From a virus (taxonomy: Duplodnaviria > Caudoviricetes): DNA of 51,987 nt. The stretch's first letter is position 1. Each line of letters starts with the position of its first letter. Position numbers and translations under genes: made by a program. The stretch lies in the IMG/VR virus record IMGVR_UViG_3300037070_002091, positions 1-51,987 of that record. The stretch is one strand, 5' to 3'. A model generated the notes under the pieces. That model was not told where the DNA came from and made no database searches. It saw nothing but the letters and a program-made list of their open reading frames with translations. This document shows, piece after piece, positions 8,551 to 42,336 of the stretch.

Positions 8551-8967
8551 ATGCAGCGCATCGACTGCCTCGTTGCCCTCGGAAGCGACAACCGGAACAC
8601 GGTGCCCAAGATGGGGATCACGGTGGCCGAAGCGCACGCGCTGCGGGCGATTCACGGGGCCGAGGCGCTCCTCGACGTCCAGCCCCTCGAAGGTGACGAG
8701 CCCGTCAGCTTGCGCGGCGAGATCACGCGGCTGCGGGAGAAGTACCAGGGCAAGGACGAGGACGGCCGCCCCATCATCGAGGCGCTCTTCGCCGGCGGCG
8801 GGTCAAGCGTCCCCGAGACGGTCGACGACCTGCAGCTCCCCGAGCAGTGCTTCCGGACGCTGACCCGCGTGACCGCGGCGCCGCGGCCCGAGGGACGTCA
8901 GCTCAAGTCCATCGCGCCGGTCTCCGGCGAGGATGACGGCGGGACGGTCGACCATCTCTTCGACTGA
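8551..8967 (+). CDS. Hypothetical morphogenesis protein
   Basis: AAGGAG RBS; lies between head and neck genes; ends DHLFD. Confidence 0.75.
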   Translation: MQRIDCLVALGSDNRNTVPKMGITVAEAHALRAIHGAEALLDVQPLEGDEPVSLRGEITRLREKYQGKDEDGRPIIEALFAGGGSSVPETVDDLQLPEQCFRTLTRVTAAPRPEGRQLKSIAPVSGEDDGGTVDHLFD

Positions 8968-8991
8968 GCCCGTTCGCGGGTAGGAGGACCA

Positions 8992-11601
8992 ATGCGGAAC
9001 CAGGCGCTCTCCTCGGTCCTCCGAAAGTACCGGCAGGAAATCCACGTTTCCGACAACCCGGCGCACAACGCCTCGGTTCGCGACAGCCAGGTCTACGAAT
9101 TGCAGACCGAGCAGGAGCGGCTCTGGAAAAAGCATTCGTGGCCCTTTCTGCGTGTCGAAAGGTACATCGACCTCCAGGCAGGCCAGCGGTTCTACGACAC
9201 GCGCGGCGCCAAGCTCTACGACGGCACCCCGAAGAGCGACCTAGGCATCGAACGCCTCGAGAAGGTCGAACTACGCTGGGGGCCGGGCTGGTACGAGCTG
9301 CGCCCGGACATCGGCCCCGGGGAGTATCAGAGGGTCGATAGCGAGCTAGGCACCCGCGGGTGGCCGTGCGAGGCGTGGCGAGTCTACGAGGACGAGCAGT
9401 TCGAGATCTGGCCCATCCCGTCGGAAAACGCCGATCCGGTCAGCATCGACGGCCGGCTCCGACTGACCGGGATCCGCGACCTCCGCCCCTTCATAGCCGA
9501 CGATGACCGCTGCGACCTCGACGACAACATGGTCATCAAGTTCGCGGCGGCCCGGTACAAGGCGGGCTCCGGCGGGAAGGACGCGCAGATCGTCCTCGAC
9601 GAGGGTAAGGGCCTCGAAACCGACCTGACCGGCAACTTCGTGAAAGCGAAGGTGTTTAGTCTAGGCGGGAGCGAGCTTACGGCGTTCCGCGGGCGGCGCG
9701 GCCCCCAAGGGCCGCTCGGCGGGGGTGCGGGCGTGTCCGCTCCCTCGGGGTCTTCGTCGAGCGGGGGCGGCTCGGGTAGCAGCAGCGCCCCCAGCGTCAC
9801 CAACGTCACGAATATCTACCAGGTCTCCGCCGACAGCGAGGTCATCCGGCCGGAGGACTATACCCTCGGAGCTGATGACCTGAACATCGCACAGGCGTTC
9901 ACGGATGGCATGCTGACCGGCCGCCCGGTCCGCCTCGATGGCAGCTACGCGCTCTCAGGGTCGCTCTCGACCGTCGCCATGACGACCGAGCACCTGACGA
10001 TTCTTGGCTCCGGCCTGATAACCTACACCGCCAACGTGGGCGTCGGGATGTCTTTCCACGCCACCTACCCGGCCGCGGTTGCGGTTTCAGCGGTAACGCA
10101 GACGACGCGCTCGTTCCCGGGTACTGGTACGACGGCCTGCGAATGCACCCAGATCGCCGCGGCGGGCCACGGCTGCACCGTTGGCGACATCATCAAGATC
10201 GTCTCGGACGACCAGATCGTCCCGCAGGCAGCAGTGAACCACCGCCAGGGCGAGTTCTGCTACGTCGCCGATGTAGATGGGAATGACCTCTACGTCGCCG
10301 GCTACCTGCACGACACCTACACGACAACCGTGCGGATCGTTCGGGTGCGGACCGAGGCGAAGCTGGCCATAGAAGGGCTACGTTTCGCCGCGACGCCGGA
10401 TCAAATGAGCTGGTCGCTGACGATGCTCAAGGTGACGGGTTTTGCCTTCCCACGCATCCGGACAAGTTGCGTGTCCGGCTACAGCCAGGGGCTCTATCTG
10501 TCATCCTGTTTCATGGCTGACGTCGATATCGACGGCACCGAAATGCTCAATCGCATCGGGAGCGGGAGCAGCAACGGATATCTGCTCCTCGACAGCACGT
10601 CGGCCTACACGTTGGCCAAAGTTAAGGCGGTCGATGCGCGGCACGCCTACACGACAAGCACCCCAGCCTCGAGCACGAGCGATGAAGCGTACCTCTACGG
10701 TCGCACCTATGGTGCGGAGGTTACTGGAACGGCGCACGGCTGCTCCTCGGCGGCTTTCGACACTCATTCCGAGGCTGTGGACGTCACCTTCCGGGGCATC
10801 TCGACCGGCGGCGCCCGGAACGGCGAGGAGGCTTCCGGCATTGGCGCGCAGCTCCGTGGCACGGGAACCCAGCTCATCGGTGGCCGCGACTTCATGTCCA
10901 CCTACGGGGCCAACGTCCATGTCCAGGTCGAGGGGGACTGTGTCGATAACGAGATCATCGACTGGAACTTCACCGGCCTTGGGGACGGCGTTCGGATAAA
11001 CTTCCCCAGCGCCGCCTTCCCCGCGGTCCGCCCGATAGTGCGTGGCGGGAAATTCCGCTCCAACTTCACGAGATGCGCCGCGCTCTGGCTTTGCTCCGGT
11101 GCGATCATCGAGAACCTATACCTCGCTCCCTACGGCTCCACGGCCAACATGGAAGGCATCTACATCGGCAATGACGTCGAGGTGCTGGTCCGTAACCTGA
11201 CCGTCGATCTCTCGGGTTACAGCGGCTCAACGTTCCGTGTTTTCGGCATCCACGCCGCCGGCAGCACCCTCGTTGTCGATGGTGCCAGGGTCATCGGGGC
11301 GTCCGGCAAGCTCCAGGCCTGGATCACCGGCGGGAGCAATGCGGGGACTTACCGGCGGTCTAGGCTAGTCACTGACGCGGCGCCGAGTAGCGGCGAGATC
11401 ATCAACGGCGGCTCGCTCACCACCCAGCTACTCGGGGCGATGAAGCCGGAGGCTTTCGCGATCGCCAGTCTGCCGTCCGCGGCGGCCGAGGGTGCCGGGA
11501 CGATCGTCTGGACGACCAACGGCTACGCCGGCGCGGCCGGCATGGCGTATTCGAACGGGACAGATTGGAAGCGATTTGATACCGGCGCGACGGTCTCGTA
11601 A
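8992..11601 (+). CDS. Head-tail adaptor-like domain fused to a beta-helix tailspike/depolymerase-like domain
   Basis: First ~230 aa carry an adaptor-like W.WPFL motif at the adaptor gene position, then a Gly/Ser linker, then ~600 aa of beta-helix-like sequence ending AYSNGTDWKR. Confidence 0.65.
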   Translation: MRNQALSSVLRKYRQEIHVSDNPAHNASVRDSQVYELQTEQERLWKKHSWPFLRVERYIDLQAGQRFYDTRGAKLYDGTPKSDLGIERLEKVELRWGPGWYELRPDIGPGEYQRVDSELGTRGWPCEAWRVYEDEQFEIWPIPSENADPVSIDGRLRLTGIRDLRPFIADDDRCDLDDNMVIKFAAARYKAGSGGKDAQIVLDEGKGLETDLTGNFVKAKVFSLGGSELTAFRGRRGPQGPLGGGAGVSAPSGSSSSGGGSGSSSAPSVTNVTNIYQVSADSEVIRPEDYTLGADDLNIAQAFTDGMLTGRPVRLDGSYALSGSLSTVAMTTEHLTILGSGLITYTANVGVGMSFHATYPAAVAVSAVTQTTRSFPGTGTTACECTQIAAAGHGCTVGDIIKIVSDDQIVPQAAVNHRQGEFCYVADVDGNDLYVAGYLHDTYTTTVRIVRVRTEAKLAIEGLRFAATPDQMSWSLTMLKVTGFAFPRIRTSCVSGYSQGLYLSSCFMADVDIDGTEMLNRIGSGSSNGYLLLDSTSAYTLAKVKAVDARHAYTTSTPASSTSDEAYLYGRTYGAEVTGTAHGCSSAAFDTHSEAVDVTFRGISTGGARNGEEASGIGAQLRGTGTQLIGGRDFMSTYGANVHVQVEGDCVDNEIIDWNFTGLGDGVRINFPSAAFPAVRPIVRGGKFRSNFTRCAALWLCSGAIIENLYLAPYGSTANMEGIYIGNDVEVLVRNLTVDLSGYSGSTFRVFGIHAAGSTLVVDGARVIGASGKLQAWITGGSNAGTYRRSRLVTDAAPSSGEIINGGSLTTQLLGAMKPEAFAIASLPSAAAEGAGTIVWTTNGYAGAAGMAYSNGTDWKRFDTGATVS

Positions 11602-14064: not shown

Positions 14065-14065
14065 C

Positions 14066-21839: not shown

Positions 21840-21868
21840 TATGTATGTCAGTCGTATATCACCGTCTC
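21840..21868 (-). promoter_or_regulatory. Leftward promoter, GACATAC family (weak -35)
   Basis: Minus strand GAGACG-GTGATATACGACTGACA(17)-TACATA, nearly identical to 41732-41760. Confidence 0.6.
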
Positions 21869-21887
21869 CCTCGGTCGGCAACCCCCG

Positions 21888-21917
21888 TTGACAGATTGTC
21901 CGGACAGGTTGTAGGTT
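21888..21917 (+). promoter_or_regulatory. Rightward sigma70-type promoter with tandem GGAC-N5-GTCC-like operators
   Basis: TTGACA-18-TAGGTT; ATG follows 5 nt after the -10, suggesting a leaderless mRNA. Confidence 0.65.
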
Positions 21918-21922
21918 GGCTC

Positions 21923-22216
21923 ATGCTCTCCTTCGATGCAGCCCGGTTCCTCACCCACCACTTTCGCGACAGTTCTGACATCCAGGACGCGGTGCGCGAG
22001 TGTGACGTCGAGCCTCCGTCGCTGGAGCAGATCCGAAAGTGGCGGGAGCGCAACAGCATCCCCGCCGACTGGTTGACTATTTTGGCTTTTATTCTTGAAG
22101 CAAGGACGGGACGCCCCGTATCTTTATCCTATTTCATGGTGGTACCATGTCCAACAAGCCCACAACCGAGCAGCAAGTCCGCAGTTACTGGCGAACGTGC
22201 CACGATCTTCGACTAG
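21923..22216 (+). CDS. Cro/CI-like small DNA-binding protein
   Basis: First gene after the promoter; PSLEQIRKWRERNSIP resembles a Cro-type recognition helix. Confidence 0.6.
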   Translation: MLSFDAARFLTHHFRDSSDIQDAVRECDVEPPSLEQIRKWRERNSIPADWLTILAFILEARTGRPVSLSYFMVVPCPTSPQPSSKSAVTGERATIFD

Positions 22217-22341: not shown

Positions 22342-22577
22342 AAGACGACAGTTGGAAAGGCGAGCACCTGATTCGCAGCGTTCCGCGCGCCGCCCATAAT
22401 CCGTTGGGCGGAATCCAGCGGGACGCGCAAGGCAAGCGCCGCAACGCACCTTACAAGATATGCGCCGTGCCTAACTGCGGGCGCCGGCTGTCGCAAGCGA
22501 ACCATTCGGACGTCTGCCGGCGCCACAACCACGCCGTCGGCTACTGCCACTGCACTGAATGCCGGATGCGACGGTGA
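22338..22577 (+). CDS. Small Cys/His-rich putative Zn-binding protein
   Basis: CAVPNC…CRRH…CHCTEC. Confidence 0.6.
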   Translation: MKDDSWKGEHLIRSVPRAAHNPLGGIQRDAQGKRRNAPYKICAVPNCGRRLSQANHSDVCRRHNHAVGYCHCTECRMRR

Positions 22578-23065
22578 AAGTCCTCGGCGTCGACCCGGGG
22601 GCGACCGGGGCCTTCGTGATGCTCAGCGAAACCGGGCTGGTCGTGCTCGACATGCCCACGTTTCTCATCACGCGCGGCCGGTCCGAGAAGGCCGAGGTCG
22701 ACGTGCGCCACCTCGCCGAATGGCTTGCAAGCTTGAGGCCCGACGTTTGCTACTTCGAACAGGTCGGCGGAATGAAGGGGCAAGCGGCGGGCGCCGCGTT
22801 CAACTTTGGCCGCAGCACGGGCCTGGCCGAGGCCGCCGTCAAGCTCTCGGGCGCCCGGTTCGTTGCGGTTCCACCCGCCACCTGGAAGCGGCGCATGGGG
22901 TTGCTCGGCGCCGGCAAGGACGCGGCGCGGCAAATGGCGGCCAACCAGTTCCCCGACGCCGCGGCGTTCTTTCGCCGTGCCAAGGACGATGGCCGAGCCG
23001 AGGCGGCGCTGCTCGCAGAGTACGGTCGCCGCATCGAGGCCCCCAAAGAGGACATCTTCGCATGA
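22559..23065 (+). CDS. RuvC-like Holliday junction resolvase
   Basis: VLGVDPG, YFEQV, AFNFG, P..WK and DGRAEA motifs. Confidence 0.9.
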   Translation: MPDATVKVLGVDPGATGAFVMLSETGLVVLDMPTFLITRGRSEKAEVDVRHLAEWLASLRPDVCYFEQVGGMKGQAAGAAFNFGRSTGLAEAAVKLSGARFVAVPPATWKRRMGLLGAGKDAARQMAANQFPDAAAFFRRAKDDGRAEAALLAEYGRRIEAPKEDIFA

Positions 23066-24593: not shown

Positions 24594-25931
24594 ATGTCAA
24601 CGCACGGGGCACGCGAGCACGCACGCTGGAGCGCATCATCGAGCGCGCGGAACTTCGCGTGTCCCGGGGCGCTGGCGCTCATCGAGAAGATGGGCTTCGT
24701 CGACAAGGAGAGCCGTGCCGCGGCATGGGGCACGGTCTGCCACCAGGTTGCAGAGATATGCCTCCACGACGGCAAGGACGCTGCGGACTTCGTCGGCTCG
24801 ACCGTCACGGCGAAGGACTTCTCCTTCGAGTTCGACGACGAGATGGCCGAGACGACGCAGGTCTTCCTCGACTACGTGCGCGGCCGGATGGAGGAGTACG
24901 AGCAGACCGCTCGCGACGACGCGAACCCGCACGAGACCAGCCCCGCCACCCTGCTCATCGAGCAGAAGTTCGACCTCGCCCCCCTCAACCCGCCCTTCGA
25001 GGCCGGCGGCACGGGCGACGCCGTCATGCTCTTCCCGGCGTGGGGGCTCATCGAGGTCGTCGACCTCAAGACGGGCCGGGGCTGGGTAGACGCCGTCGGC
25101 AACCCGCAGACCCGCACCTACGCCCTCGGCGCCGCCCTCGCCAACCCCGGCGCGTGGAGCGCTGTGAAGTCGACGATCGTGCAGCCCCGCGCCAGCGGCG
25201 ACCCCATCCGCAGTGAGACGATCGACGTTATCGACTTGATGGACTGGACGACCGACCTCATCGCTGCGATGAACGATTGCGGGGAGGCGATGGCGATGCT
25301 TGAGTGCGTCGGCGGCGTTGTCTTCGGCTCCCTCGATACGGAGGAGGAATGGGCCGCGGGATATCTGCGCCCCGGCGACCACTGCCACGACACCTATTGC
25401 CCCGCAGCGAAGGCCTGCCCGGCCCTAGAGGCCCGCGCGCTGGCCGCCGCCCGCACGCTCTTGCAGCCGATCGCCGACGGTGAGTTCGCCGTCCCGACGC
25501 CGCCGGAGCCGCGCACGCTGCCCATTGAGAAGATCGTCGCCGTCCTCGACGCCGCAGACATGATCGAGGGCTGGCTCAACAGCGTCCGCGCCTACGCTCG
25601 TGAACTCGTCGAGGGGGGCGTGCCAGTGGGCAACTACATCCTCGTCGACAAGCAGGCGCGACGGAAGTGGAAGGACGCTGACGCCCCGGCGAATGTCGCA
25701 GCGGAAATCTCCAAGACGACGCACATCTCGACGAGCGCCTGCTTCACCGAACCAGTGCTCAAGAGCCCCGCGCAGATTGACGCCCTTGTTGGGAAAACCG
25801 GGGCGAAGCTCATCACCGACCTGTGGACCAAAGAGAGCAGCGGCACGAACCTCGTGCGCTCCGACAAGACGACGCGCCCGGCCGCGCTGCCGGCCTCGCA
25901 GAAATTCTTCCAACCCATCAACGAGGAGTAA
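24594..25931 (+). CDS. DUF2800 Cas4-like PD-(D/E)XK exonuclease
   Basis: HARWSAS…CPG, GT..H, GTGD, VDLKTG, NPQ..YALG, HC…CPA…CPA. Confidence 0.9.
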   Translation: MSTHGAREHARWSASSSARNFACPGALALIEKMGFVDKESRAAAWGTVCHQVAEICLHDGKDAADFVGSTVTAKDFSFEFDDEMAETTQVFLDYVRGRMEEYEQTARDDANPHETSPATLLIEQKFDLAPLNPPFEAGGTGDAVMLFPAWGLIEVVDLKTGRGWVDAVGNPQTRTYALGAALANPGAWSAVKSTIVQPRASGDPIRSETIDVIDLMDWTTDLIAAMNDCGEAMAMLECVGGVVFGSLDTEEEWAAGYLRPGDHCHDTYCPAAKACPALEARALAAARTLLQPIADGEFAVPTPPEPRTLPIEKIVAVLDAADMIEGWLNSVRAYARELVEGGVPVGNYILVDKQARRKWKDADAPANVAAEISKTTHISTSACFTEPVLKSPAQIDALVGKTGAKLITDLWTKESSGTNLVRSDKTTRPAALPASQKFFQPINEE

Positions 25932-25936
25932 CCCCT

Positions 25937-26575
25937 ATGGCTGCATCCAAGATGTACCGCACCGAGCACTTCCGGGGTCCGCTGATGCGGGTCTCCTACG
26001 CCTGGCAGCTGTTCAAGCTGCGCGAGGACGAAGGCTACCGCCCAAGCTACGGCTGCACCCTGATTGCGCCGAACGACGGCTTCGGCCCGATCATCGAGAG
26101 GGTCAAGGAAGTCGTCGTCGGCCAGTGGGGCGAGACCAAGGGGCCGGAGAAGTGGAAGGCAGGGCTCATCAAGAACCCTATCCTCCCGGGTGACGGCAAG
26201 GAGGCGCGGGCCAAGGATACGGGTGAGCTTCACCCCGGCATGGGGGAGGACGTGAAGTTCATCCGCGTCACCAGCGGCGCCGAGCGCAAGCCACTGATCT
26301 TCGCCAAGGACGCCGTGACGCGCATCGACGACCCCGAGGATCTGCCCTCCGGCTCCTGGGTCTATCCTGTGCTCAACTGCTTCGCATGGCACAACGACAA
26401 AAACGGCGACGGCGTCGGCATCGGGCTCGAGATGATCCAGCTCGCCAAGATCGCCACTGGCGATGAAATCCTCGGCGGTAGCGGTCGGTCCGATCCGTCG
26501 AAGTTCTTCGAAGCGATCAAGGACGACTCGGGCGGCGAGAGCAAGCCCGCGTCGGCCGCCGACCTCTTCGGCTAG
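25937..26575 (+). CDS. DUF2815 single-stranded DNA-binding protein
   Basis: RVSY, NPI..GD, SG.W, GVG.GL..IQ motifs; lies between DUF2800 and PolA. Confidence 0.85.
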   Translation: MAASKMYRTEHFRGPLMRVSYAWQLFKLREDEGYRPSYGCTLIAPNDGFGPIIERVKEVVVGQWGETKGPEKWKAGLIKNPILPGDGKEARAKDTGELHPGMGEDVKFIRVTSGAERKPLIFAKDAVTRIDDPEDLPSGSWVYPVLNCFAWHNDKNGDGVGIGLEMIQLAKIATGDEILGGSGRSDPSKFFEAIKDDSGGESKPASAADLFG

Positions 26576-26651: not shown

Positions 26652-26891
26652 ATGACCCTCCACGACATCGCCAAGAGTTTCATCGGCATGGACGCGGCCA
26701 TGCTCTCGTTCTCCTACGTCAACGGGCGCTGGCAGGCCAACCTCCGGCTCGCGCGCAGCAGCGGGTGGAAGATCGCCACCGAGGACACGATCGAGGCGGC
26801 CATCGCCGCTGTGCTCGTGCTTGGGCGCGCTGAGGCTGACGCCTACGCGCGACCCGCGCCGCCCGTCGAGGAAGAGGACATCTTCGGATGA
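26652..26891 (+). CDS. Hypothetical protein
   Basis: GGAG RBS; 79 aa ending EEEDIFG. Confidence 0.7.
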   Translation: MTLHDIAKSFIGMDAAMLSFSYVNGRWQANLRLARSSGWKIATEDTIEAAIAAVLVLGRAEADAYARPAPPVEEEDIFG

Positions 26892-27277
26892 CCGGGGAAG
26901 AGACGATGCGGCATATCCGCGAGGACACGCCGCTCAACAAACTCCGGGCGCTTTTCTCCTCGGAGTGCGGGCGGATAGAACAAGCCGGGATGCAACGGAC
27001 CCCGCTAGGCCCCGTCGAAATGCGCGCGATGGAGTTCGACGCGATAGCTCGCATCATGCGCGCGGCGGGGATGACCCTTGACGAGTTCGGCGCCCTGCTG
27101 CGCGAGCACGAGGTCGAAGCCTTCACGCTGCGCGTCGAACGCGGCTGCTGGGTAGCCAGCGTGCGCCGCGGGCATGCCGTCACCTGCGGGCGCCTCTCGG
27201 CTTCGGCCGAGGCCGCGATCCTCGATGCCTTGCATTTCGACCAGACCCCCGTGCCGAACGAGGACGTCTTCGGGTGA
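26888..27277 (+). CDS. Hypothetical protein
   Basis: Coupled at both ends; ends NEDVFG. Confidence 0.7.
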   Translation: MTGEETMRHIREDTPLNKLRALFSSECGRIEQAGMQRTPLGPVEMRAMEFDAIARIMRAAGMTLDEFGALLREHEVEAFTLRVERGCWVASVRRGHAVTCGRLSASAEAAILDALHFDQTPVPNEDVFG

Positions 27278-29343
27278 TCTTCCTCGACTACGAAACGCGC
27301 TCCACCGTCGATCTCAAAAAAGCCGGCGCGCACCGCTACGCCGAGGACCCGACGACCGACATCTGGTGCGCCTGCTACGCCCTCGATGACGGCCCCGTGA
27401 AGACCTGGGTGCCGGGCGATCCCTGCCCTGACGAAATATTCGACGCCGTGCTCGCTGGCGACACTATCAGCGGGTGGAACGTCGCTTTCGAGAAGGCGAT
27501 CTGGCGGGCGATCTCAGGCCCTCGCTACGACTGGCCCGTCCCGCTCCCCGAGCAGTTCGATGACACGGCTGCGGCGGCCGCCGCAATGGGCCTGCCGCGT
27601 AACCTCGGCGACGCCACGAAGGCAATGGGCAGCGTCCACGAGAAGGACGACGCCGGGCACCGCCTGATGATGCAGATGGCTAGACCGCGGCGCGGCGGCG
27701 AGGGCCTGCGCTGGTGGGATGACGACGAGCGCAAGGGCAGGCTCTTCGATTACTGCGCCGATGACGTGCATGCCGAGCGCGAGATGCGCCGGCTACTCGT
27801 CCCCCTGCCCCCTGAGGAACGCGAGACGTGGCTTTTTGACCAGCGGATGAACGATCGCGGCGTCGCCCTGGACCTCCCCCTCATCCACGCGCTCCTGCGC
27901 ATCGTCGACCAGGAGAAAAAACGCCTCGACGACCTGATGGCAGACGTCACGAACGGCGCGGTGACAGCCTGCACCCAGGTCGCCCGGCTGTCCGCGTGGC
28001 TGCGCGAGCAAGGCGTTCCAGCTGAAAGCTTGGCCAAGGCTGCGATCGAAGACCTGCTGCTCGACGTGTGGATGCCGGAGCGAGCACGCGAGGCCATCCT
28101 CCTGCGCAAGGAGGCGGCCAAGTCCTCGACGGCCAAGCTGCAGGCCATGCTCAACTGCGTCTGCGCCGACGGCCGCGCCCGAGGCCTCCACCTCTACCAC
28201 GGCGCGGGGACCGGCAGATGGAGCGGCAGGCTCATCCAGCCGCAAAACATGCCGCGGGGCACTGGCACCGTCGACGACCCCGAGGCCGCCGCAGAGGACT
28301 TTCTGCACGGCGACGCGGGCTGGATCAGGCTCCTCTATGGCAACCCCATGTCGGCTGTCTCCGACATGCTGCGCGCCTGCTTGGTAGGGAAGCGCCTCCT
28401 TGCCGCCGACTTCTCCGCGATCGAGGGCCGCGTCACGGCCTGGCTCGCCGGCGAGGCGTGGAAGATCGAGGCCTTCGAAGCGGCTGACGCCGGGACTGGC
28501 CCCGGTATCTACGAGCTCACGGCTGCGGGGATTCTCTCGAAGGACATCACCGCCGTCACGAAGGCCGAGAGGCAGGCCTACGGGAAGGTGCCTGAGCTGG
28601 CGCTCGGCTTCCAGGGCGGCGTCAGCGCCTTTGACTCAATGGCCCGTGTCTACGCCGTCGACATGGCCGACGCCTACGAGCCCCTGATGCGCACGACGGA
28701 TGACGAGGTTTGGACGCGGGCGGAGAAACGCTACGCCGAGTGCCTCGAGCGCCTGGACACCGGCACCGACACGATGACGCGCGAGGCCTGGATCGCCTCT
28801 GAGGTGACGAAGGTGCTCTGGCGCAAGAAGCACCCGGCGACGGTGGCGCTGTGGAAGGGGCTAGAGGAAGCGGCCTTCGATGCCGTGCTCGCCCCTGGCA
28901 ACGTCATCAGCTTCCGCGGCATCGGCTTCGTCGTGAAGCGCGGGTTCCTCTGGTGCAAGCTGCCGAGCAGCCGGTGCCTGGCCTACGGCTCGCCCAAGAT
29001 CCAGGATCGGAAGCAGCCTTGGGGCGCGGTCAAGGCCGTCGTGACCGCGCTGGGCGTCGACAGCACCACGAAGCGGTGGCTGAGGTTCGCGCTCTACGGC
29101 GGGCTCATCACGGAGAACTGCGTCCAGGCCATCGCCCGCGACGTCATGCGCGACGGGATGCTCGCTGTCGAGGCAGCAGGATACCCCGTCGTCCTCACGG
29201 TGCATGACGAGGCCGTGGCCGAGGTAGACGAGGGCTTCGGCGGCGTGGAGGACTTCGAGCGCCTTCTCGCCACGACAGCGCCGTGGGCTGCCGGGCTGCC
29301 CGTCGTCGCAAGCGGATTCGAGGCAAAGAGGTACAGGAAGTGA
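27274..29343 (+). CDS. polA: Family A DNA polymerase with 3'-5' exonuclease (APSE-type)
   Basis: ExoI LDYETRS, TGRWSG, motif A DFSAIEGR, motif B GKVPELALGF, motif C VHDE. Confidence 0.96.
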   Translation: MIFLDYETRSTVDLKKAGAHRYAEDPTTDIWCACYALDDGPVKTWVPGDPCPDEIFDAVLAGDTISGWNVAFEKAIWRAISGPRYDWPVPLPEQFDDTAAAAAAMGLPRNLGDATKAMGSVHEKDDAGHRLMMQMARPRRGGEGLRWWDDDERKGRLFDYCADDVHAEREMRRLLVPLPPEERETWLFDQRMNDRGVALDLPLIHALLRIVDQEKKRLDDLMADVTNGAVTACTQVARLSAWLREQGVPAESLAKAAIEDLLLDVWMPERAREAILLRKEAAKSSTAKLQAMLNCVCADGRARGLHLYHGAGTGRWSGRLIQPQNMPRGTGTVDDPEAAAEDFLHGDAGWIRLLYGNPMSAVSDMLRACLVGKRLLAADFSAIEGRVTAWLAGEAWKIEAFEAADAGTGPGIYELTAAGILSKDITAVTKAERQAYGKVPELALGFQGGVSAFDSMARVYAVDMADAYEPLMRTTDDEVWTRAEKRYAECLERLDTGTDTMTREAWIASEVTKVLWRKKHPATVALWKGLEEAAFDAVLAPGNVISFRGIGFVVKRGFLWCKLPSSRCLAYGSPKIQDRKQPWGAVKAVVTALGVDSTTKRWLRFALYGGLITENCVQAIARDVMRDGMLAVEAAGYPVVLTVHDEAVAEVDEGFGGVEDFERLLATTAPWAAGLPVVASGFEAKRYRK

Positions 29344-30077
29344 ACCAGCTCCTCGTCGGGGATTGTCGCGAGGTGCTCGCCACACTGCCCGCTGCCTCGA
29401 TCGACTGCATCATTGCCGATCCGCCCTACCAGCAGACCAGCCTCGAATGGGATCGTTGGCCTGCTGGGTGGCCCGCCGCCTGCCGCCGCGTGCTCAAGCC
29501 GTCGGGCAGCATGTGGGTCTTCGGCTCGCTGCGCATGTTCACGGAGCGGTGGCCGGAGTTCGCCGGCTGGCGCTTCGCCCAAGACATCGTCTGGGAGAAG
29601 CACAACGGCAGCGGCTTTCATGCCGACCGCTTCCGCCGCGTACACGAGCAGGCAGCGCAGTTTTACCGCGATGACGCTCCTTGGTCTGGGGTCTACAAGG
29701 CCCCGGTCACGACGCCAGACGCAGTTGCGAAGTCGGTCAAGCGCAGGACCAGCCGCAGCCCCGCCCATATGGGGCGCATCGGAGACGGGGTCTACGATTC
29801 CGAAGACGGCGGTCCCCGGCTTATGCGCAGCGTCGTCTACTGTCGCTCAGAGCACAGGCGGGCGATCCACCCTACCCAGAAACCAACGGGCATCGTCGAG
29901 CCGCTGATCCTGAACGCCTGCCCGCCGGGGGGCGTGATCCTCGACCCCTTCTTCGGTTCGGGAACCACCGGCGAGGTGGCAGCTGCCTTCGGCCGGGGGT
30001 GCATCGGCATCGAGGCCCGGGAGGACTACGCAGCCCTCGCGCGCGCCCGCCTCGGCATCGAGGACGTCTTCGCCTGA
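29340..30077 (+). CDS. Beta-class amino (N6A/N4C) DNA methyltransferase
   Basis: DPPY before HPTQKP and DPFFGSGTT. Confidence 0.95.
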   Translation: MNQLLVGDCREVLATLPAASIDCIIADPPYQQTSLEWDRWPAGWPAACRRVLKPSGSMWVFGSLRMFTERWPEFAGWRFAQDIVWEKHNGSGFHADRFRRVHEQAAQFYRDDAPWSGVYKAPVTTPDAVAKSVKRRTSRSPAHMGRIGDGVYDSEDGGPRLMRSVVYCRSEHRRAIHPTQKPTGIVEPLILNACPPGGVILDPFFGSGTTGEVAAAFGRGCIGIEAREDYAALARARLGIEDVFA

Positions 30078-30437: not shown

Positions 30438-30640
30438 TGCCCATCTTCCCTGGTTCCCGAGCCTGGTGGGTTGCCCGGCGGAAGCGCGACGTCGCAGACC
30501 GCGCCGAACTCATCGCGGCGGTCGAGGCGCTGTTGGCTGACGTCGGCATGGCGACGGAGCCCGGGCTCGCCGAACGGTTTTCCGACGCCTTGATCGAAGC
30601 CGACTGGTTCAAATTCCACGAGGAAGACGAGAATGCCTAG
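30437..30640 (+). CDS. Hypothetical protein
   Basis: AAGGAG RBS; TAATG coupling. Confidence 0.6.
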   Translation: MPIFPGSRAWWVARRKRDVADRAELIAAVEALLADVGMATEPGLAERFSDALIEADWFKFHEEDENA

Positions 30641-30842
30641 ACCCCGCCAGCAGACCACCATGCGCCTCGCGCCCGACCTGCTCGCGGCGCTCCGGCAGGC
30701 CGCTCACCGCCGCGGCGTGACGCGCTCGCGCCTCGTCGAACTCGTGCTCATCGACTTCGTGAACGGCACCCGGCGGAGCAAGCCGCAGCTCAACGCCAGC
30801 GGCCAGACCCCGACCCTTGACGATGAAGGAGTGTTCCAGTGA
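30633..30842 (+). CDS. Ribbon-helix-helix (Arc/CopG-like) regulator
   Basis: QTTMRL strand, then LLAALRQAAHRRGVTRSRLVE. Confidence 0.8.
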   Translation: MPRPRQQTTMRLAPDLLAALRQAAHRRGVTRSRLVELVLIDFVNGTRRSKPQLNASGQTPTLDDEGVFQ

Positions 30843-31063: not shown

Positions 31064-31254
31064 GGCATCCCGAGCGCCTGCGCGACCGCGACTGGATGGC
31101 CAAGGCCTACGCCAAGGGCAGCACCAACTCGATCGCCGCGGAGACCGGCTACACCCCGACCCAGGTCCGCAAATGGCTCCACAAGCATCGCATCCCGGTG
31201 CGGCCGTCGACCGGCAACAGCCTACTGTCTTACAGCTTACGGGCTCGCGCATGA
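31060..31254 (+). CDS. Small helix-turn-helix protein
   Basis: STNSIAAETGYTPTQVRKWLHKHRI HTH pattern. Confidence 0.7.
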   Translation: MRHPERLRDRDWMAKAYAKGSTNSIAAETGYTPTQVRKWLHKHRIPVRPSTGNSLLSYSLRARA

Positions 31255-31454
31255 CTTTCGACGACCTCCGCGCCGCGCATCCTGACCTGGGCTTCGCACT
31301 CTACGCCTACTCGGCAGGCGAGCCCGTGACGCTCGAGGTCATCGACGCCGACAAGAGCTACACTTTCACCGGCTGGTCGGCCTCAGCCGCCATAGCCGCC
31401 GCCTTCCCTGAACCCGAGCCCGCAGTCCAAGAAGAAGAGGACATTTTCTCATGA
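31251..31454 (+). CDS. Hypothetical protein
   Basis: MTFDDLRAAHPDLGFALYAY…; ends EEEDIFS. Confidence 0.7.
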   Translation: MTFDDLRAAHPDLGFALYAYSAGEPVTLEVIDADKSYTFTGWSASAAIAAAFPEPEPAVQEEEDIFS

Positions 31455-31531: not shown

Positions 31532-31824
31532 CAATCATGCCCTACATCTACTACCTCGGCAGCCCCCTCGAAGTCTTCCCCAGCGTGCTCCACCGGTACA
31601 AGCTCGAACCCGGTGCGCGCATCGAGGATCCCAAGGTCTACGCCCGCCTCGTTAGAGACCAAGCCATCGCCCAGCGCACGGCTTGGGGACTGCACCACTC
31701 TCATCACTGGAGCCCCGACATGCGCGACGAAAACGACGACGGCAACTTCTTCCAAGGCCTGCTCATCGCCTTCCTGCTCTCGCTGCCTGTCTGGCTTCCC
31801 TTGCTGTTCTGGCTGTTTGGTTAG
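31528..31824 (+). CDS. Membrane protein with C-terminal TM helix
   Basis: FFQGLLIAFLLSLPVWLPLLFWLFG. Confidence 0.6.
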   Translation: MTIMPYIYYLGSPLEVFPSVLHRYKLEPGARIEDPKVYARLVRDQAIAQRTAWGLHHSHHWSPDMRDENDDGNFFQGLLIAFLLSLPVWLPLLFWLFG

Positions 31825-36649: not shown

Positions 36650-38791
36650 ATGAGTGACATTGTATCCGATCTCGCCACCGCAGGCAACCTATTCAGTTTC
36701 ATGTTCGCACGCGGCTACCACCGCTTGTGTCCCGTCATTCCCCCAGGCGCAGAGATAGACCCAACCTCGCGCATCGCGAGCAGGATCAACGGCCCCGCCG
36801 ACCCCCGGGGCAAGGCCCCCGGAATCAGGCAGCCAACGGGCCTGTGGAACGGTATCCGTTTCACGACGATGCCCGAGGCGACGGAGGAAGACCTCAAGCG
36901 CTGGTTTCGCATGGGCGCAAACGTCGGCGTCCGGACGGGCCGGGGCCTCGTGGCCATCGACATCGACGTAACGAACCGAGAGCTCGCGGTCATCCTCACC
37001 CAGCTCACATGGGACCTGCTAGGCCACGCGCCCGTCCGCTTCGGCCGCCAACCCAAGTCCCTTCTCATCTACCGCATCACCGGCGACGTCCCTTACTCCA
37101 AGGTCAGCTTCTCAACCCCGACCGAGGCCAAGGCCGCGGTAGAAATCCTCTACGAAGGCCGCCAGTTCGTCGCGAAGGGCATCCACCCAGGCACGGGCCG
37201 CCCCTACGAGTGGCGAGGCCTCGTGCATCGCGACGCGCTCCCTGAGATCACGCCCGAGCAGCTCGAGACCTACCTCGAAGCCGTGGCCACGCGGACCAAG
37301 GGCGTCGCGCATCATGCCTCGGGCGAGGAAGGCAGCTGGTCCGAGCAGTGGAAGCTCCGGGGCGACCCCGCGCTCGTCCGCGACGCCGTGGCCCACCTTC
37401 CCAACCGCCAGGACGACTATCCTACGCGCGATGCCTACATCTCGACGGGCTACGCGATCAAGTCGGCGATGGGGCCTGACCTCGTCGACGAAGCCCTCGA
37501 CCTCTACCTGCAATGGTGCGGCCGCTGGGATGGCGGGGACAACAACGTAGAGGACACGATCGAGGAATGGGAGCGCATGCACCCGCCCTTCCGTGTAGGC
37601 GCCCAGACCCTCTACCTCGCCGCGGAGAAGCTGGGCAACTGGACAGGCCGGGCGCGCCTCTACCTCGAGCCGGTGCTCGGGCCTGTAGACATCCCCGACG
37701 CCATCGCAGGACCCCAGCGCATGAGCGCGCAGCCCAACGAGCCCTTGCACGCTGACGGCAAGAAACGCTTCGAGCTCCTGTCCGTCACAGACATCCTCGC
37801 CCTCCCCGACCCCAAGTTCCTCGTCGATCGCCACATCCCTGAGATAGGCCTCGGGTTCCTCTATGGCCGGCCAGGCTGCGGCAAGAGCTTCATGTGCCTC
37901 GACCTCGCCCTCCACGCTGCCTATGGGCTTCCCAGCTGGCACCAGGACGCGCTCAACCTCCGCCCCGAAGCCCACGTGCTCTATCTCGCTAGAGAGGGCA
38001 GCTCAGGCTTCAAGGCGCGCATCAAGGCGTGGCAAGGGATGCACGCGGAGCAAATATCCGGGCGAAATTTCGCTCCGAGATTCAGCCTTATTCGCCAAAC
38101 CATCAACTTCATGCAGCCAGACGACATAGGCGCGATCGTGCGCACGGTCCGCGAGGCGGAACTTGGGCCTATGGACCTCATCGTCGTCGACACGGTGAGC
38201 CGGGTCCTCCCGGGCGCAGACGAAAACCTGCAGAAGGAGATGACGATCTTCGTCCAGGCCTGCGACGCGCTCAACGACGCCTTTGGGGGCATCGTCCTGG
38301 GCGTCCACCATGCAGGTAAGAACGGCGACATGCGCGGGAGCAGCGTGCTGCGTGGCGCCGGCGACTTCGTGTTCAGGCTTGATCGCGAGCCAGGGAGCAG
38401 CGTCGCGCAGCTCTGGTGCGAGAAGCAGAAGGACGCGCAAGACGGTTGGTGCGACCGCTACCGCATGCTCGAGAGCCTGGGCAGCCTAGTACCGTTCAGG
38501 GTCAGCGCGGAAGAAGACGACGCCCTGGACGCCGGTGCGGAGGCCAAGGTTCTAGCGGCCATAGGAGAGGCGTGGGAGGCGGGGAAGCCCTGGTCCCGCG
38601 AGCCGCACACGGCGACGGCAAAGGGCGGGCGCACGCCCCGCTACGGGCCGCTGCTGGCCTCCCGCATCCTGGAAATATCGGCGGCTGCGTGCGAAACGCT
38701 CATCGAGGATCTCCATCGCCGAGGCCTGCTGGAGCATGCGCACTTCGATCGAAAGACGTCTGGGTGGCGGGTTAAAGACGTCTTCAATTAA
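36650..38791 (+). CDS. Primase-polymerase / PriCT-like / RepA-type AAA helicase fusion
   Basis: ANVGVRTG…AIDID prim-pol motif, central G.AIK…WC domain, Walker A GRPGCGKS, Walker B IVVDT, HHAGK…RGSS. Confidence 0.92.
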   Translation: MSDIVSDLATAGNLFSFMFARGYHRLCPVIPPGAEIDPTSRIASRINGPADPRGKAPGIRQPTGLWNGIRFTTMPEATEEDLKRWFRMGANVGVRTGRGLVAIDIDVTNRELAVILTQLTWDLLGHAPVRFGRQPKSLLIYRITGDVPYSKVSFSTPTEAKAAVEILYEGRQFVAKGIHPGTGRPYEWRGLVHRDALPEITPEQLETYLEAVATRTKGVAHHASGEEGSWSEQWKLRGDPALVRDAVAHLPNRQDDYPTRDAYISTGYAIKSAMGPDLVDEALDLYLQWCGRWDGGDNNVEDTIEEWERMHPPFRVGAQTLYLAAEKLGNWTGRARLYLEPVLGPVDIPDAIAGPQRMSAQPNEPLHADGKKRFELLSVTDILALPDPKFLVDRHIPEIGLGFLYGRPGCGKSFMCLDLALHAAYGLPSWHQDALNLRPEAHVLYLAREGSSGFKARIKAWQGMHAEQISGRNFAPRFSLIRQTINFMQPDDIGAIVRTVREAELGPMDLIVVDTVSRVLPGADENLQKEMTIFVQACDALNDAFGGIVLGVHHAGKNGDMRGSSVLRGAGDFVFRLDREPGSSVAQLWCEKQKDAQDGWCDRYRMLESLGSLVPFRVSAEEDDALDAGAEAKVLAAIGEAWEAGKPWSREPHTATAKGGRTPRYGPLLASRILEISAAACETLIEDLHRRGLLEHAHFDRKTSGWRVKDVFN

Positions 38792-39248: not shown

Positions 39249-39254
39249 CAAGGC

Positions 39255-39610: not shown

Positions 39611-39840
39611 CAGCGAACGATCCCCGCATAAGCTTGCGCGTCATTCGAGAGGGCGACGATGCCATGACCGTCATGCGACTCGACTTCGCCCGTCACGTCG
39701 ACTAGGTCGCCATTGCGCTTATCGAATGTGAACGACATCGCGCGGCGCGGGCCAAAACATGGCCACCGACTCGCGAACGTCTCGACTTCGCGTCGGGAGA
39801 CGGTGACGCGCACGAAGCAGCCTTCATCATGTTTCCGCAT
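39610..39840 (-). CDS. Hypothetical early protein
   Basis: MRKHDEGCFVRV…; GGAG/AGGA upstream. Confidence 0.65.
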   Translation of the reverse strand: MRKHDEGCFVRVTVSRREVETFASRWPCFGPRRAMSFTFDKRNGDLVDVTGEVESHDGHGIVALSNDAQAYAGIVR

Positions 39841-39844
39841 GGTC

Positions 39845-40246
39845 CTAGCTCCCAACGTAGAAATAGATTTGACCGTTGTCGCCACGGTACATCCGCCCGC
39901 CGCAGGTTCCCGCTTCCGACAGGCGTTCGTATTCCTCCCAATCGTCGCCACACAGAGATTCCATTTCGCGGATATCCCCCGAGATGAGCTGTATCAGGAG
40001 TGCTTCGATCTCGGCGTTGGACCATGCAGCAATTTCCTCCTCCTCCCAGGCGCCAAATTCAGCGAACCAATCGCGCAAGGCCTCGTATTCGCTTTCGTGG
40101 TTTAGAAGGGGCCACTCGCGCGTTGTCGCCGCTTCGAGCGCGCTCGCCCAGGTTTCCGGGCCAGCGTTGGCGCCACGTTCGAACATGCTTGCAGAGTATT
40201 CGAAGGGCTCAGCTTCGTCGAAAAACTTAGTAATGTTGATTTCCAC
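39845..40246 (-). CDS. Highly acidic early protein
   Basis: AAGGAGG RBS; Glu/Asp- and Trp-rich. Confidence 0.8.
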   Translation of the reverse strand: MEINITKFFDEAEPFEYSASMFERGANAGPETWASALEAATTREWPLLNHESEYEALRDWFAEFGAWEEEEIAAWSNAEIEALLIQLISGDIREMESLCGDDWEEYERLSEAGTCGGRMYRGDNGQIYFYVGS

Positions 40247-40259
40247 GGTTTGTCCTCCT

Positions 40260-40454
40260 TTATATTTTCCGTGAGCCTCGGGTGTCGTGGAGAAGTAGAA
40301 GTATGTCCTTCATCTCGTCTCTAGTATAGCCAATGTCCACGACTAGAGCTAACGCATAGTACGCGCCTTTATCCGCAGAAATGTCGACTAGCATCTCTGC
40401 GGTTCTGCGGTATTCGGCTTTTTTAGTGCCATATTCGGATTTTTGGTAAGCCAT
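40260..40454 (-). CDS. Hypothetical early protein (AT-richer)
   Basis: MAYQKSEYG…; GAGG upstream. Confidence 0.6.
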   Translation of the reverse strand: MAYQKSEYGTKKAEYRRTAEMLVDISADKGAYYALALVVDIGYTRDEMKDILLLLHDTRGSRKI

Positions 40455-40467
40455 AGCCTGTTCCCTC

Positions 40468-40830
40468 TTAGACCGCTTGCCAGATTTCAAAGCCCGCTTT
40501 GCGCAGACGCGAATCCCAGGTTTCCCCGTCGTCCGGCGTCAATGCGTCGCGGAAGCTCGCCCAGGGTTCGGGGTTTGCGTCTGGCGTGTCGGGCGGAGTG
40601 AGCTTGTGCGCTGCGTTCGAGCACGCTGCAGACCGCTTGTCATAGCCATAGCCATAGGCGAAACCTCGTACCATTGGCTCACCTAGCCAATGGACATAGG
40701 CATAAAGTCGACCTACGCCATCGCGGGGAAATTTAAACGCGATGGTCGCAACGCGTTTGCCTTTGAGTGCAACCACGAAAGCCGAGACGTTCGAAAACGT
40801 CTTGTCGTGCTGTTCATAGATCGTTGTCAT
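40468..40830 (-). CDS. Hypothetical early protein
   Basis: AGGAG RBS; G.A.GYGYDK.SAA motif seen in early proteins of phages and plasmids. Confidence 0.75.
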   Translation of the reverse strand: MTTIYEQHDKTFSNVSAFVVALKGKRVATIAFKFPRDGVGRLYAYVHWLGEPMVRGFAYGYGYDKRSAACSNAAHKLTPPDTPDANPEPWASFRDALTPDDGETWDSRLRKAGFEIWQAV

Positions 40831-41177
40831 AGGTTTTGCTCCTGCGCTTCGAGGTATTCGTCGCGCGTTATCGGATTGACTTGGATCCCGAACGCGTCAT
40901 TGGTTCCATAGGGTAAGACGGTTGACAGGTAGGAATCGCGGTCTGTTGGGCGCCGGCGCCAGAGTGCAGCCGCTACGCTGGCAATGTCGCGGTCAGAATG
41001 GCGATAGAGCTGGCTAGCGGCGCGGCATTCCTCGCGCGTCATGTCGTTATCCGTCATGCGATCCGACTCGTCGCGAAGAATAGCCTTCAGCGCGCGTCTA
41101 GTGCTGACCGCGACTGAATAGCTATCGTCGGGCATGTAGCAGCCGCGCAAGCCTGTCATTATACAGAAATACCTCAT
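40827..41177 (-). CDS. Hypothetical early protein
   Basis: GLRGCYMPD motif; ATGA coupling. Confidence 0.7.
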   Translation of the reverse strand: MRYFCIMTGLRGCYMPDDSYSVAVSTRRALKAILRDESDRMTDNDMTREECRAASQLYRHSDRDIASVAAALWRRRPTDRDSYLSTVLPYGTNDAFGIQVNPITRDEYLEAQEQNL

Positions 41178-41545
41178 AGTGCGTCCTCCTCATCTTCGAA
41201 GTGAACCGGACCTTCCCAATCGTCGCGCCGCATGTCTGCGATGCTCGGGAACATGGCCAAGGGAAAGTCGCGAACATGGCGCGAGGCGCCGTTGCGCCGT
41301 TCGATCGTTAGCCAGCCATCGGCTAGATCGCAGCCGCGGAAGTCGCCACCTTCGTGCGTCACGAGTGCGTCGACGTGCTCCCGCAACGTGAGCCGCACAG
41401 GCTCGTCAGGGTAGCGTGAGTCGACGCAACGCGCTTCATAGGCGGTCGCGTCCCAGCGGACCTCGCGCCACGCTTCGGTGCATGGCATCCAGATGTCCCC
41501 GACTAGAAAGCCGGTGATTGTGATTTGAGTGGTTGCGTATGACAT
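41174..41545 (-). CDS. Hypothetical early protein
   Basis: AAAGGAGAATCAC RBS before MSYATT…. Confidence 0.7.
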   Translation of the reverse strand: MSYATTQITITGFLVGDIWMPCTEAWREVRWDATAYEARCVDSRYPDEPVRLTLREHVDALVTHEGGDFRGCDLADGWLTIERRNGASRHVRDFPLAMFPSIADMRRDDWEGPVHFEDEEDAL

Positions 41546-41559
41546 CGGTGATTCTCCTT

Positions 41560-41691
41560 TCACTGCATCATCCTCCGCGTGCGGAGCGCAGCTTCGAGAC
41601 GATCTACCGCCTGCTTGCGTGTGGCGCCGAACTTGAACAGGCCGCGGGCGCAGGCAAGCCACGTGCCGTTGTCCATTTGCCTTACAGTCAT
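41560..41691 (-). CDS. 43-aa first gene of the early operon (absent from ORF track)
   Basis: MTVRQMDNGTWLACARGLFKFGATRKQAVDRLEAALRTRRMMQ*; same AAAGGAGAATCAC RBS. Confidence 0.65.
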   Translation of the reverse strand: MTVRQMDNGTWLACARGLFKFGATRKQAVDRLEAALRTRRMMQ

Positions 41692-41731
41692 CTCGTGATT
41701 CTCCTTTGCGGTTCAACGAGGATATGCCCGA

Positions 41732-41760
41732 AATGTATGTCAGGTGTATGTCACCGTCAA
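41732..41760 (-). promoter_or_regulatory. Sigma70-type early promoter with two TGACATAC repeats
   Basis: Minus strand TTGACG-GTGACATACACCTGACA(17)-TACATT. Confidence 0.8.
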
Positions 41761-41868
41761 GGGGGATTATCGCGTGAAATATGTTGCTGCAAGATGTTGC
41801 AGTTTGCGTAAGTAACTGATTGGTGATAAGCGTCTGGCGTGTCCGGACAAAGTGGAGGAGCGCAAAAC

Positions 41869-42336
41869 GTGCCGCTAAAGAATGGACGGCTGACCACGCA
41901 AGAGTATGATTTTGCTAAGGTTTTAGCCGTTACGGGTGATCGTGACTATGCGATGTATCGAGCTGGGTACAAGTCATCAGCCTCGACGATGAAGGCGAGC
42001 GATCCGGCGATTCAGGCTGTAATCCGTGCCGAGCGTCGGGCGAAGCTCACGCTCCTTGATGAGCGTGCGTTTGTCGTTATCGAGGAGTGCATGCGCGACG
42101 GTGTGGCCAATGGAACGCGTCTGGAAGCGGTCAAAACCCTGTGGAGGGAGCTGCGGGAGGAGCGCGCAGACCAAGCTGCAGCTAATCCTGACGTGGATCC
42201 TGCTCAGCTGGACGCTGGCCAGCTAGATGAGCATGTTAAGCGAGGCCTAGAACTCATGGCGACGCTGCGGGAGCGCATGGCCCAGGAAGGCACGATTGAG
42301 GGCGAGCTCGTCGACGATGAGGACGTCTTCGGCTGA
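41869..42336 (+). CDS. terS: Probable terminase small subunit
   Basis: GGAGGAG RBS before GTG 41869; LTTQEYDFA…TGD…A.YRAGY TerS-type HTH; RLEA.K motif. Confidence 0.75.
   Translation: MPLKNGRLTTQEYDFAKVLAVTGDRDYAMYRAGYKSSASTMKASDPAIQAVIRAERRAKLTLLDERAFVVIEECMRDGVANGTRLEAVKTLWRELREERADQAAANPDVDPAQLDAGQLDEHVKRGLELMATLRERMAQEGTIEGELVDDEDVFG

Follow-up and report, generated by a model that had tools for sequence, protein, structure and literature searches.

A C-terminal aliphatic-Phe tail shared by DNA-transaction proteins of a phage group, a possible docking motif for the host beta clamp

The window analysed here is the whole of the IMG/VR virus record IMGVR_UViG_3300037070_002091 (51,987 bp, CheckV completeness estimate 100%, G+C about 65%), a phage genome in which eleven proteins had been predicted to share one C-terminal peptide, an aliphatic residue followed by Phe and one last residue. 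The locus raises the question of whether this tail is selected as a peptide or is a by-product of a DNA signal, and, if it is a peptide, which protein reads it. We found that the tail is real and selected at the protein level, that orthologues keep it and that it changes in concert within genomes. The identity of its reader is weighed below.

Enrichment of the tail in the window

Genes were called with a codon log-odds model trained on 13 window open reading frames (ORFs) of more than 1,200 bases with third-position G+C above 0.8, and the curated set comprised 60 genes; the 21536-22216 ORF, which overlaps other ORFs and has a weak coding signal, was excluded. Eleven of the 60 genes had [ILV]-F-x C-termini, against 0.32 expected from the internal frequency of the pattern (83 matches in 15,723 positions; binomial P 2.4e-14), and the proposed check against a shuffled background bore out a clear enrichment: when the last 30 residues of every protein were shuffled 20,000 times, 0.43 proteins were tagged on average and 5 at most. 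The strict form [GDS][ILV]Fx occurred in nine of the 60 genes against 0.057 expected. In a six-frame control, 16 of 1911 stop-to-stop stretches ended in [ILV]Fx, and 12 of those 16 were the + strand ORFs in question. The tags concentrated in the early/replication block at about 21.5-42.4 kb, with 10 in 36 genes as against 1 in 24 elsewhere (Fisher P 0.037). All eleven C-termini of the original prediction were present exactly as written, with stops at 8967, 22216, 23065, 26575, 26891, 27277, 30077, 30842, 31454, 38791 and 42336; four positions given with them (8551, 26652, 26888 and 31251) are starts rather than stops, the C-termini themselves being correct. The nine strict tags are carried by the following genes.

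22559..23065, + strand: RuvC-like Holliday junction resolvase, 168 aa (phrog_1770, E 5.8e-29); tail …APKEDIFA
25937..26575, + strand: gp2.5/Enc34-type single-stranded DNA-binding protein (SSB), 212 aa (PF10991, E 1.5e-12; phrog_112); tail …SAADLFG on a flexible linker
26652..26891, + strand: 79-aa protein without Pfam/PHROG match; tail …PVEEEDIFG, stop overlapping the next ATG
26888..27277, + strand: 129-aa protein directly upstream of the family A DNA polymerase (PolA); tail …VPNEDVFG, stop overlapping the GTG start of PolA
29340..30077, + strand: N6/N4 DNA methyltransferase, 245 aa (PF01555, E 1.2e-39, domain ending at residue 234); tail …LGIEDVFA
30633..30842, + strand: possible ribbon-helix-helix (RHH) protein, 69 aa (CopG/RHH_3 matches under Pfam cut-offs); tail …LDDEGVFQ
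31251..31454, + strand: 67-aa protein; tail …VQEEEDIFS after a Pro-rich linker of variable length
36650..38791, + strand: Prim-Pol/AAA_25 primase-helicase, 713 aa (PF13481, PF09250); tail …WRVKDVFN
41869..42336, + strand: 155-aa protein without Pfam/PHROG match; tail …VDDEDVFG

The SSB matched PF10991 with 48 bits against a cut-off of 26, and its AlphaFold model has an OB fold with predicted local distance difference test (pLDDT) values above 90 and a tail (residues 181-212) at 59-70; the match above the curated cut-off and the low-confidence C-terminal segment together assign it to the Enc34/gp2.5 type. Pfam and PHROG searches assigned no family to the 129-aa protein. Several tags stand clear of any following gene: no downstream gene overlaps the methyltransferase, more than 600 bases without a called gene lie downstream of the primase-helicase, and the next 620 bases or so after the 155-aa protein are without a gene. 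Homologues in related loci have similar ends, …VDLFG in a weak homologue of the 79-aa protein (L030/L031) and …EHDVFA in a homologue of the 155-aa protein (L088).

Three further ORFs end in the pattern, the first two being doubtful members and the third a twelfth [ILV]Fx case that is probably a chance match.

8551..8967, + strand: 138-aa ORF in the virion module, no family match; tail …VDHLFD, with His where 89% of tags carry G, D or S
21845..22216, + strand: ORF with an uncertain start (21536, 21845 or 21923), no family match; end …ATIFD
31537..31824, + strand: 95-aa protein with the hydrophobic end …LLFWLFG

Coding signal is weak around the ORF that stops at 22216, with frame scores near zero or negative. 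That the carriers are DNA-transaction proteins, and that virion proteins lack the tag, agreed with the original prediction, while some of its gene names fared less well. The 155-aa protein, which it called TerS, has no Pfam or PHROG match, TerL lies at 1697-3355, and a homologue weakly matches a TerS PHROG with its N-terminus alone (E 1.5e-4). The ORF ending at 22216, called Cro-like, matched no family, and the RHH label is weak, the Pfam matches behind it existing but falling under the cut-offs.

Conservation among relatives and the level of selection

An SSB alignment run against viral contigs identified 80 loci, from which proteins containing X were dropped and in which a tag was counted as [ILVMF]-F-x. 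The results showed that 238 of 1609 called genes were tagged against 12.2 expected, with at least one tag in 69 loci, at least three in 40 and at least five in 21. Independent GenBank gene calls likewise showed the tail to be widespread: 14 of 69 annotated coding sequences were tagged in Rhizobium phage RHph_N65 against 0.59 expected, including RusA, SSB, an HNH protein, an endodeoxyribonuclease, a PAPS-reductase-like protein and a primase/helicase ending …EGIFD, and so were 10 of 45 in the region examined of EBPR siphovirus 2, including two methylases, a resolvase and an exonuclease. The carriers form a group of phages of about 45-60 kb with PolA and a gp2.5-type SSB, many with integrase and repressor, in which 10-20% of genes are tagged. 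An impression that the tag was confined to this phage came from nine viral loci found via PolA (33-45% identity), where 1 of 171 called genes was tagged, and was overturned by the SSB-based survey. In each of these genomes found via PolA, several proteins had a different acidic-hydrophobic end in common, D[DE]FA occurring three times in L009, DFL in L003, L004 and L005, and DMED, DMES and GMED in L007. A search of one literature library, covering the articles themselves, found no description of this tail in these phages.

The window, the 80 loci and the nine earlier loci together supplied 1841 proteins, which we clustered (BLASTP E below 1e-8, alignment at least 60% of the longer protein) and whose family representatives we named by Pfam. 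Most tagged families retained the tail in orthologues elsewhere, as the original prediction had asked to be checked.

GapR-like small protein after SSB: tagged in 58 of 66
N6/N4 methyltransferase: 17 of 19
C5 methyltransferase: 12 of 17
RuvC: 13 of 16
RusA: 22 of 50
67-aa window family: 9 of 13
SSB: strictly penultimate Phe in 39 of 76, the pair inside the last 8 residues in 65 of 76
DUF2800 exonuclease: 2 of 81
PolA: 0 of 48
SNF2 helicase: 0 of 71
f7, a conserved family: 0 of 41
Integrase: 0 of 38
Helix-turn-helix (HTH) repressor: 0 of 32

Alignment of the 13 orthologues of the 67-aa family showed an invariant penultimate Phe, preceded by I or V in nine and by A or P in the other four, after a Pro-rich linker that varies in length and sequence; an invariant Phe on a variable linker is the signature of a short linear motif. 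Among the 120 best SSB homologues, Phe was penultimate in 103, preceded by L (48), M (47), F (6) or I (2), and the pair lay within the last 8 residues in 117, the other three having a D-D/E-IPF tip after it. The claim that Phe is always penultimate therefore holds for the listed window tags and is not strict across the family, in which 17 of the 120 SSBs add 1-8 residues after L/M-F. These additions indicate that a free Phe-x carboxyl end is not required.

Two observations concern such tips in their own right. Three SSB homologues (P0063, P0090 and P0104) have a …GLFG or …ALFG motif and then a bacterial-type D-D/E-IPF tip, two docking signals in series, so that the two are distinct signals. 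In L030 (5980-6622, minus strand), adjacent 78-aa and 142-aa proteins beside the integrase, the latter of the HTH repressor family, both end in …DEIPD, resembling the bacterial SSB tip minus its final Phe. Separately, the GapR-like DNA binder (PF10073) directly follows SSB in many relatives (e.g. L040 11011-11292, L033 11564-12067), and a GcrA-like regulator (PF07750) occurs in some.

At the DNA level, five exact copies of the 13-mer GAGGACRTCTTCG lie at tags in identical register before the stop, and allowing up to 2 mismatches gave 14 matches against 3.9 expected. Both counts could speak for a signal in DNA or translation, such as a Shine-Dalgarno or coupling element, a protein-binding site or a recombination joint, with the peptide as by-product, and in the four tagged genes that overlap the next start GAGGA does sit at Shine-Dalgarno distance. 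However, the 13-mer arises because the preferred codons of the phage spell it (GAG 0.76, GAC 0.77, ATC 0.83, GTC 0.55, TTC 0.85). Seven of the 11 tagged genes have no overlapping start, and overlap was no more frequent among tagged genes (4/11) than among untagged + strand genes (21/43; Fisher P 0.52). The original prediction had counted five overlaps; we found four (23062, 26888, 27274 and 30839), the ATG over the 31454 stop opening no ORF of at least 40 aa. The last tag codon varies freely, and its third base suits the overlapping ATG or GTG where there is one. Relatives retain the peptide with other codons: in L010, the closest relative found via PolA (52% identity), several + strand ORFs end in AGIFG, DEGVFG, KALFG, DKGVFG, AGVFD, DGVFA and PSVFD, with Val coded by GTT, GTA and GTG and without GAGGA. 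In the 253 tagged proteins collected from the window and its related loci, 12 different codons encoded the aliphatic residue, and position -4, which was not used in tag selection, held G (137), D (62) or S (25) in 224. Same-residue tag pairs within a genome shared the codon at a rate of 0.366, as against 0.452 expected from codon usage. Gene conversion between tails was ruled out on this last count, shared codons not being in excess. Because codons vary and neither overlaps nor shared codons are in excess, the Shine-Dalgarno, binding-site and gene-conversion readings are rejected; a DNA-level explanation is largely refuted and, in our judgement, extremely unlikely, and the protein-level selection put forward in the original prediction stands.

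We further compared tags within genomes, using the non-SSB tags of 35 de-duplicated loci with at least three tags. Pairs within a genome agreed on the aliphatic residue at a rate of 0.712 against 0.386 for shuffled labels, a value reached by 0 of 5000 shuffles, although the related loci are not independent and the shuffle count therefore overstates the significance. All-Val, all-Ile and all-Leu phages exist. Agreement across unrelated proteins without codon sharing points to one reader per phage. When I/V/L type was mapped on PolA, exonuclease, SSB and SNF2 trees of 21 genomes, each required 6 changes, no better than shuffled labels in a test of low power; this weakly favours a determinant outside those four genes.

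The proposal of one hub protein thus fits the behaviour of the tail, which is as if there were one reader, while the protease-control form of that proposal gained no support. In such a scheme the tail would be a degron or a tag for a host protease, chaperone or other factor outside the replisome, limiting how long early proteins last or setting where they are located. Proteases are known to recognise non-polar C-terminal tails, the tail here sits at the extreme C-terminus of many early proteins, and virion, lysis, integrase and repressor proteins lack it, all as a degron would have it. However, the most constant carrier is SSB, a stoichiometric protein needed in quantity, the 17 SSBs with added residues (DDDIPF tip included) extend beyond the motif, and the carriers are specifically DNA enzymes. 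We consider a degron improbable.

Candidate readers of the tail

Taken together, these patterns make it very probable that the tail works at the protein level as a docking motif with a single receptor; docking itself, and the partner docked on, we infer. The tail would be a C-terminal short linear motif, G/D/S, then Val/Ile/Leu, Phe and one small or acidic residue on a flexible linker, and would tether SSB, primase-helicase, resolvase, methyltransferase, the possible RHH protein and small proteins to a shared receptor on replicating phage DNA. The best candidate receptor is the host beta sliding clamp, on which the tags may act as a tool-belt, in parallel with T4 gp43, gp33, gp55 and ligase on gp45 and with phage Mu and its host clamp; the Val/Ile/Leu-Phe pair would insert into the hydrophobic subsite 1 of the clamp. 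The statement as a whole, a docking tail tethering DNA-transaction proteins to that one receptor, we hold tentatively, with its chances a little short of evenly balanced.

Several findings are consistent with the clamp. The sequence [G/D/S]-[L/M/I/V]-F coincides with positions 3-5 of the clamp motif QL[S/D]LF. A passage of PMC3716654 gives the Pol II motif as QLGLF, and the canonical form is stated in part of PMC11139829 as Q-phi-x-[L/M]-[F/L]; the L (48) or M (47) of the SSB tails agrees with its [L/M] position. A section of PMC12867686 describes phage Mu, which lacks a clamp gene of its own, as dependent on the clamp of its host for MuC and Mor; of the consensus, Mor contains DLF alone. The carriers, moreover, are protein kinds that ride clamps elsewhere, which counts for the clamp. 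The C-terminus of T4 gp43, …SLDFLFG, speaks for it as well, and so, weakly, do the 6 changes of I/V/L type on each of the four phage gene trees.

Several findings weigh on the other side. At clamp motif position 1, Gln is present in 0 of 9 solid window tags, and at position 2 none of the nine has an aliphatic residue; E, K, N, I, A or D fills positions 1-2, with E, A, K or D at position 2. Among the 253 tagged proteins the residue four before Phe is mostly A, E, D or T, and position 2 holds G in 42, L in 42, E in 41 and A in 26. Position 4, which is L or M in known motifs, is a beta-branched Ile or Val in 8 of the 9 window tags; across the 253 proteins it is V in 96, L in 80 and I in 69, with the Phe at position 5 fixed by selection. 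SSB tails keep L or M even in genomes otherwise all-V or all-I, so that the reading of SSB may differ from that of the other carriers; an affinity hierarchy or a second reader may lie behind this. The phage polymerase never carries the tag (0/48), whereas T4 and bacteria have the polymerase as first client; a conserved clamp-type motif was not found in PolA, 1 of 47 orthologues having one, and no window replication protein has a canonical clamp motif. Searches of the window record found neither PF00712 (E <=0.001) nor PF02767, PF02768 or PF09116 (E <=1), although a very divergent clamp could escape them, and five related records with a CheckV completeness of 93-100% likewise gave no PF00712 match. 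No clamp-loader gene was found in the phage or the five near-complete relatives, and host machinery would therefore have to load clamps on phage DNA. Distant relatives carry the other shared tails D[DE]FA, DFL and DME[DS], and the I/V/L preference switches between lineages, which a co-evolving private receptor explains more easily than a conserved clamp pocket. A complex prediction of two copies of E. coli DnaN, as stand-in host clamp, with the 67-aa tagged protein (alignment A2) scored 0.10 and 0.05 against a mark of 0.32, which weighs on neither side.

The untagged neighbours of the tagged genes bear on a different kind of receptor, encoded by the phage itself.

24070..24591, + strand: member of the conserved, never-tagged f7 family, by weak BLAST links
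24594..25931, + strand: DUF2800/PD-(D/E)XK exonuclease (PF10926, E 7.6e-54), untagged
27274..29343, + strand: family A DNA polymerase, PolA, 689 aa (phrog_17, E 6.9e-85), untagged, ending …KRYRK

A paralogue of the f7 protein lies at 23652-24065. The f7 protein was considered as a hidden clamp or hub; its structure model shows a small 4-helix domain besides a short helix and a disordered segment, and against the PDB it had no fold match at E 0.001 or better (best E 2.8).

One possible though doubtful alternative is a private network of the T7 type, in which the receptor is PolA, the SSB groove, the exonuclease or f7, the SSB and primase-helicase tails dock as T7 gp2.5 and gp4 do on gp5, and the methyltransferases, resolvases and small proteins acquired this tail in order to travel with the phage replisome. 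A tagged gp2.5/Enc34-type SSB and a tagged primase-helicase beside a never-tagged PolA (0/48) are the T7 arrangement, and tails that differ between lineages and agree within a genome are as expected for a co-evolving private pair. To our knowledge, no methyltransferase or resolvase elsewhere docks on a family A polymerase, a point at which no search was aimed, and we count this against such a network. PMC12339929 describes a basic patch on the T7 polymerase to which the SSB tail binds, and titles that it cites call the C-terminal Phe of that tail essential; a portion of PMC5686142 describes how, in crystals of the Enc34 SSB, the C-terminal tail rests on the concave sheet of an adjacent SSB. 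However, that Enc34 tail is long and strongly acidic, with 16 of 29 residues acidic (same portion of PMC5686142), whereas the tails here are short and mildly acidic, the last 25 residues having a net charge of -2 in SSB and +3 in primase-helicase, and SSB linkers in relatives are Gly/Ala-rich. The tails did not have the T7-type form, long, strongly acidic and aromatic-ending, as one more residue follows Phe. The I/V/L type also failed to follow the PolA, exonuclease or SSB tree any more closely than shuffled labels did, at low power.

Alternatively, and again with limited likelihood, the 10-20% of proteins that are tagged may form a private docking code with a non-clamp reader, either the family A polymerase or an unrecognised phage or host protein. 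On the same reading, which in this form too we regard as rather unlikely, all tags of a genome would retune together, to Val, Ile or Leu, or to DFL, DFA or DME[DS] in distant lineages, giving a tunable tool-belt without a ring.

If the tails do share one receptor, a 50-kb phage without a clamp would organise a dozen DNA enzymes by a single three-residue hook, SSB, primase-helicase, resolvases, N6 and C5 methyltransferases, nucleases and the GapR-like DNA binder among them, and methylation, recombination and replication would be coupled on new phage DNA. The tail offers a cheap sequence marker of action on replicating DNA among small uncharacterised phage proteins, and the concerted Ile/Val/Leu switching is a natural experiment on how a motif network and its reader co-evolve. 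The question can be put to a direct test in a cultured member of the group, Rhizobium phage RHph_N65, which grows on Rhizobium phaseoli.

Genome setting and comparison with known systems

The virion/packaging module spans about 50-21,600 and 42,900-51,900, with the following landmarks.

1697-3355: TerL
6605-7696: major head protein
48692-49378: endolysin

The early block contains the RuvC-like resolvase, DUF2800 exonuclease, SSB, family A polymerase, N6/N4 methyltransferase, primase-helicase, a sulfatase and a GH16 glycosidase; integrase and repressor genes were not found in the window. The sulfatase (33296-34678; PF00884, E 3.5e-41) and the GH16 glycoside hydrolase (35427-36290; PF00722, E 1.5e-13), both in the early region, are unusual auxiliary genes. 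The best genome matches of the sulfatase have at most 40% identity and are scattered across several phyla, and the host is therefore not nameable from it. Near-identical records were not found in the phage collection, and a PolA scan of genome contigs found no relative. Hints of the host come from one SSB homologue named Thauera sp. and from the GapR and GcrA genes in relatives, families typical of Alphaproteobacteria. At 38800-42000, G+C falls to 56-61%, with a gap without called genes after the primase-helicase and a minus-strand gene cluster at 39845-41545, one gene of which has the C-terminus …HFEDEEDAL. Within the virion module lie an acetyltransferase-like gene (13010-13456; phrog_1249, E 2.5e-14) and, at 43851-48695, a 1614-aa protein with repeated segments such as Q[VI]S[LV]xVTATN[ST] (three matches), probably a repeat-rich fibre or surface protein.

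As analogues of the tail, the original prediction named the bacterial SSB tip DDDIPF, which fits poorly, and the clamp motif QL[SD]LF, which fits in its last three positions only; the tails of T4 gp43 and T7 gp2.5/gp4 are to be added. The SSB tip resembles the tail as an acidic, hydrophobic SSB end recruiting partners, but the polarity is reversed, many proteins carrying the peptide here. Bacterial beta-clamp motifs are likewise short and linear with an aliphatic-Phe end, often C-terminal, with a small or acidic residue before the pair and with acidic flanks or a free carboxyl end; the tags differ from them in having no Gln at position 1, no aliphatic residue at 2 and mostly Ile or Val at 4, except in SSBs. 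In T7, the gp4 helicase-primase tail docks on the family A polymerase. The components here are homologous or analogous to those of T7, with a Phe-bearing tail on the gp2.5-type SSB and on the primase-helicase and none on the family A polymerase; however, T7 tails are long, highly acidic and end in Phe itself, whereas the tags are short, have Gly/Ala/Pro-rich linkers and a residue after Phe, and occur on many non-replisome enzymes. A single residue also follows the C-terminal clamp motif of Pol III alpha, where it is Asp, as noted in part of PMC11139829. Phage Mu is comparable as a clamp-less phage that uses the host clamp, with just DLF in Mor, the corresponding binding here being putative.

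Shared clamp-docking tails are textbook knowledge for T4. According to portions of PMC2988020 and PMC7892883, T4 puts interchangeable clamp-binding tails on four proteins. T4 gp43 ends in …SLDFLFG and gp55 in …SLDFLYEAND, so that gp43 has aliphatic-Phe-Gly at its carboxyl end, as the tags here do. T4, however, encodes clamp and loader, and its polymerase bears the motif, whereas the phage here has an untagged polymerase and searches revealed no clamp gene in it; the carriers here are also more numerous (9-11 of 60 genes) and include SSB, primase-helicase, methyltransferase and resolvase. What sets this case apart from T4 is the occurrence of such a tail in phages of about 45-60 kb without a detectable clamp, with an untagged polymerase, a tagged SSB and primase-helicase, and a concerted aliphatic switch.

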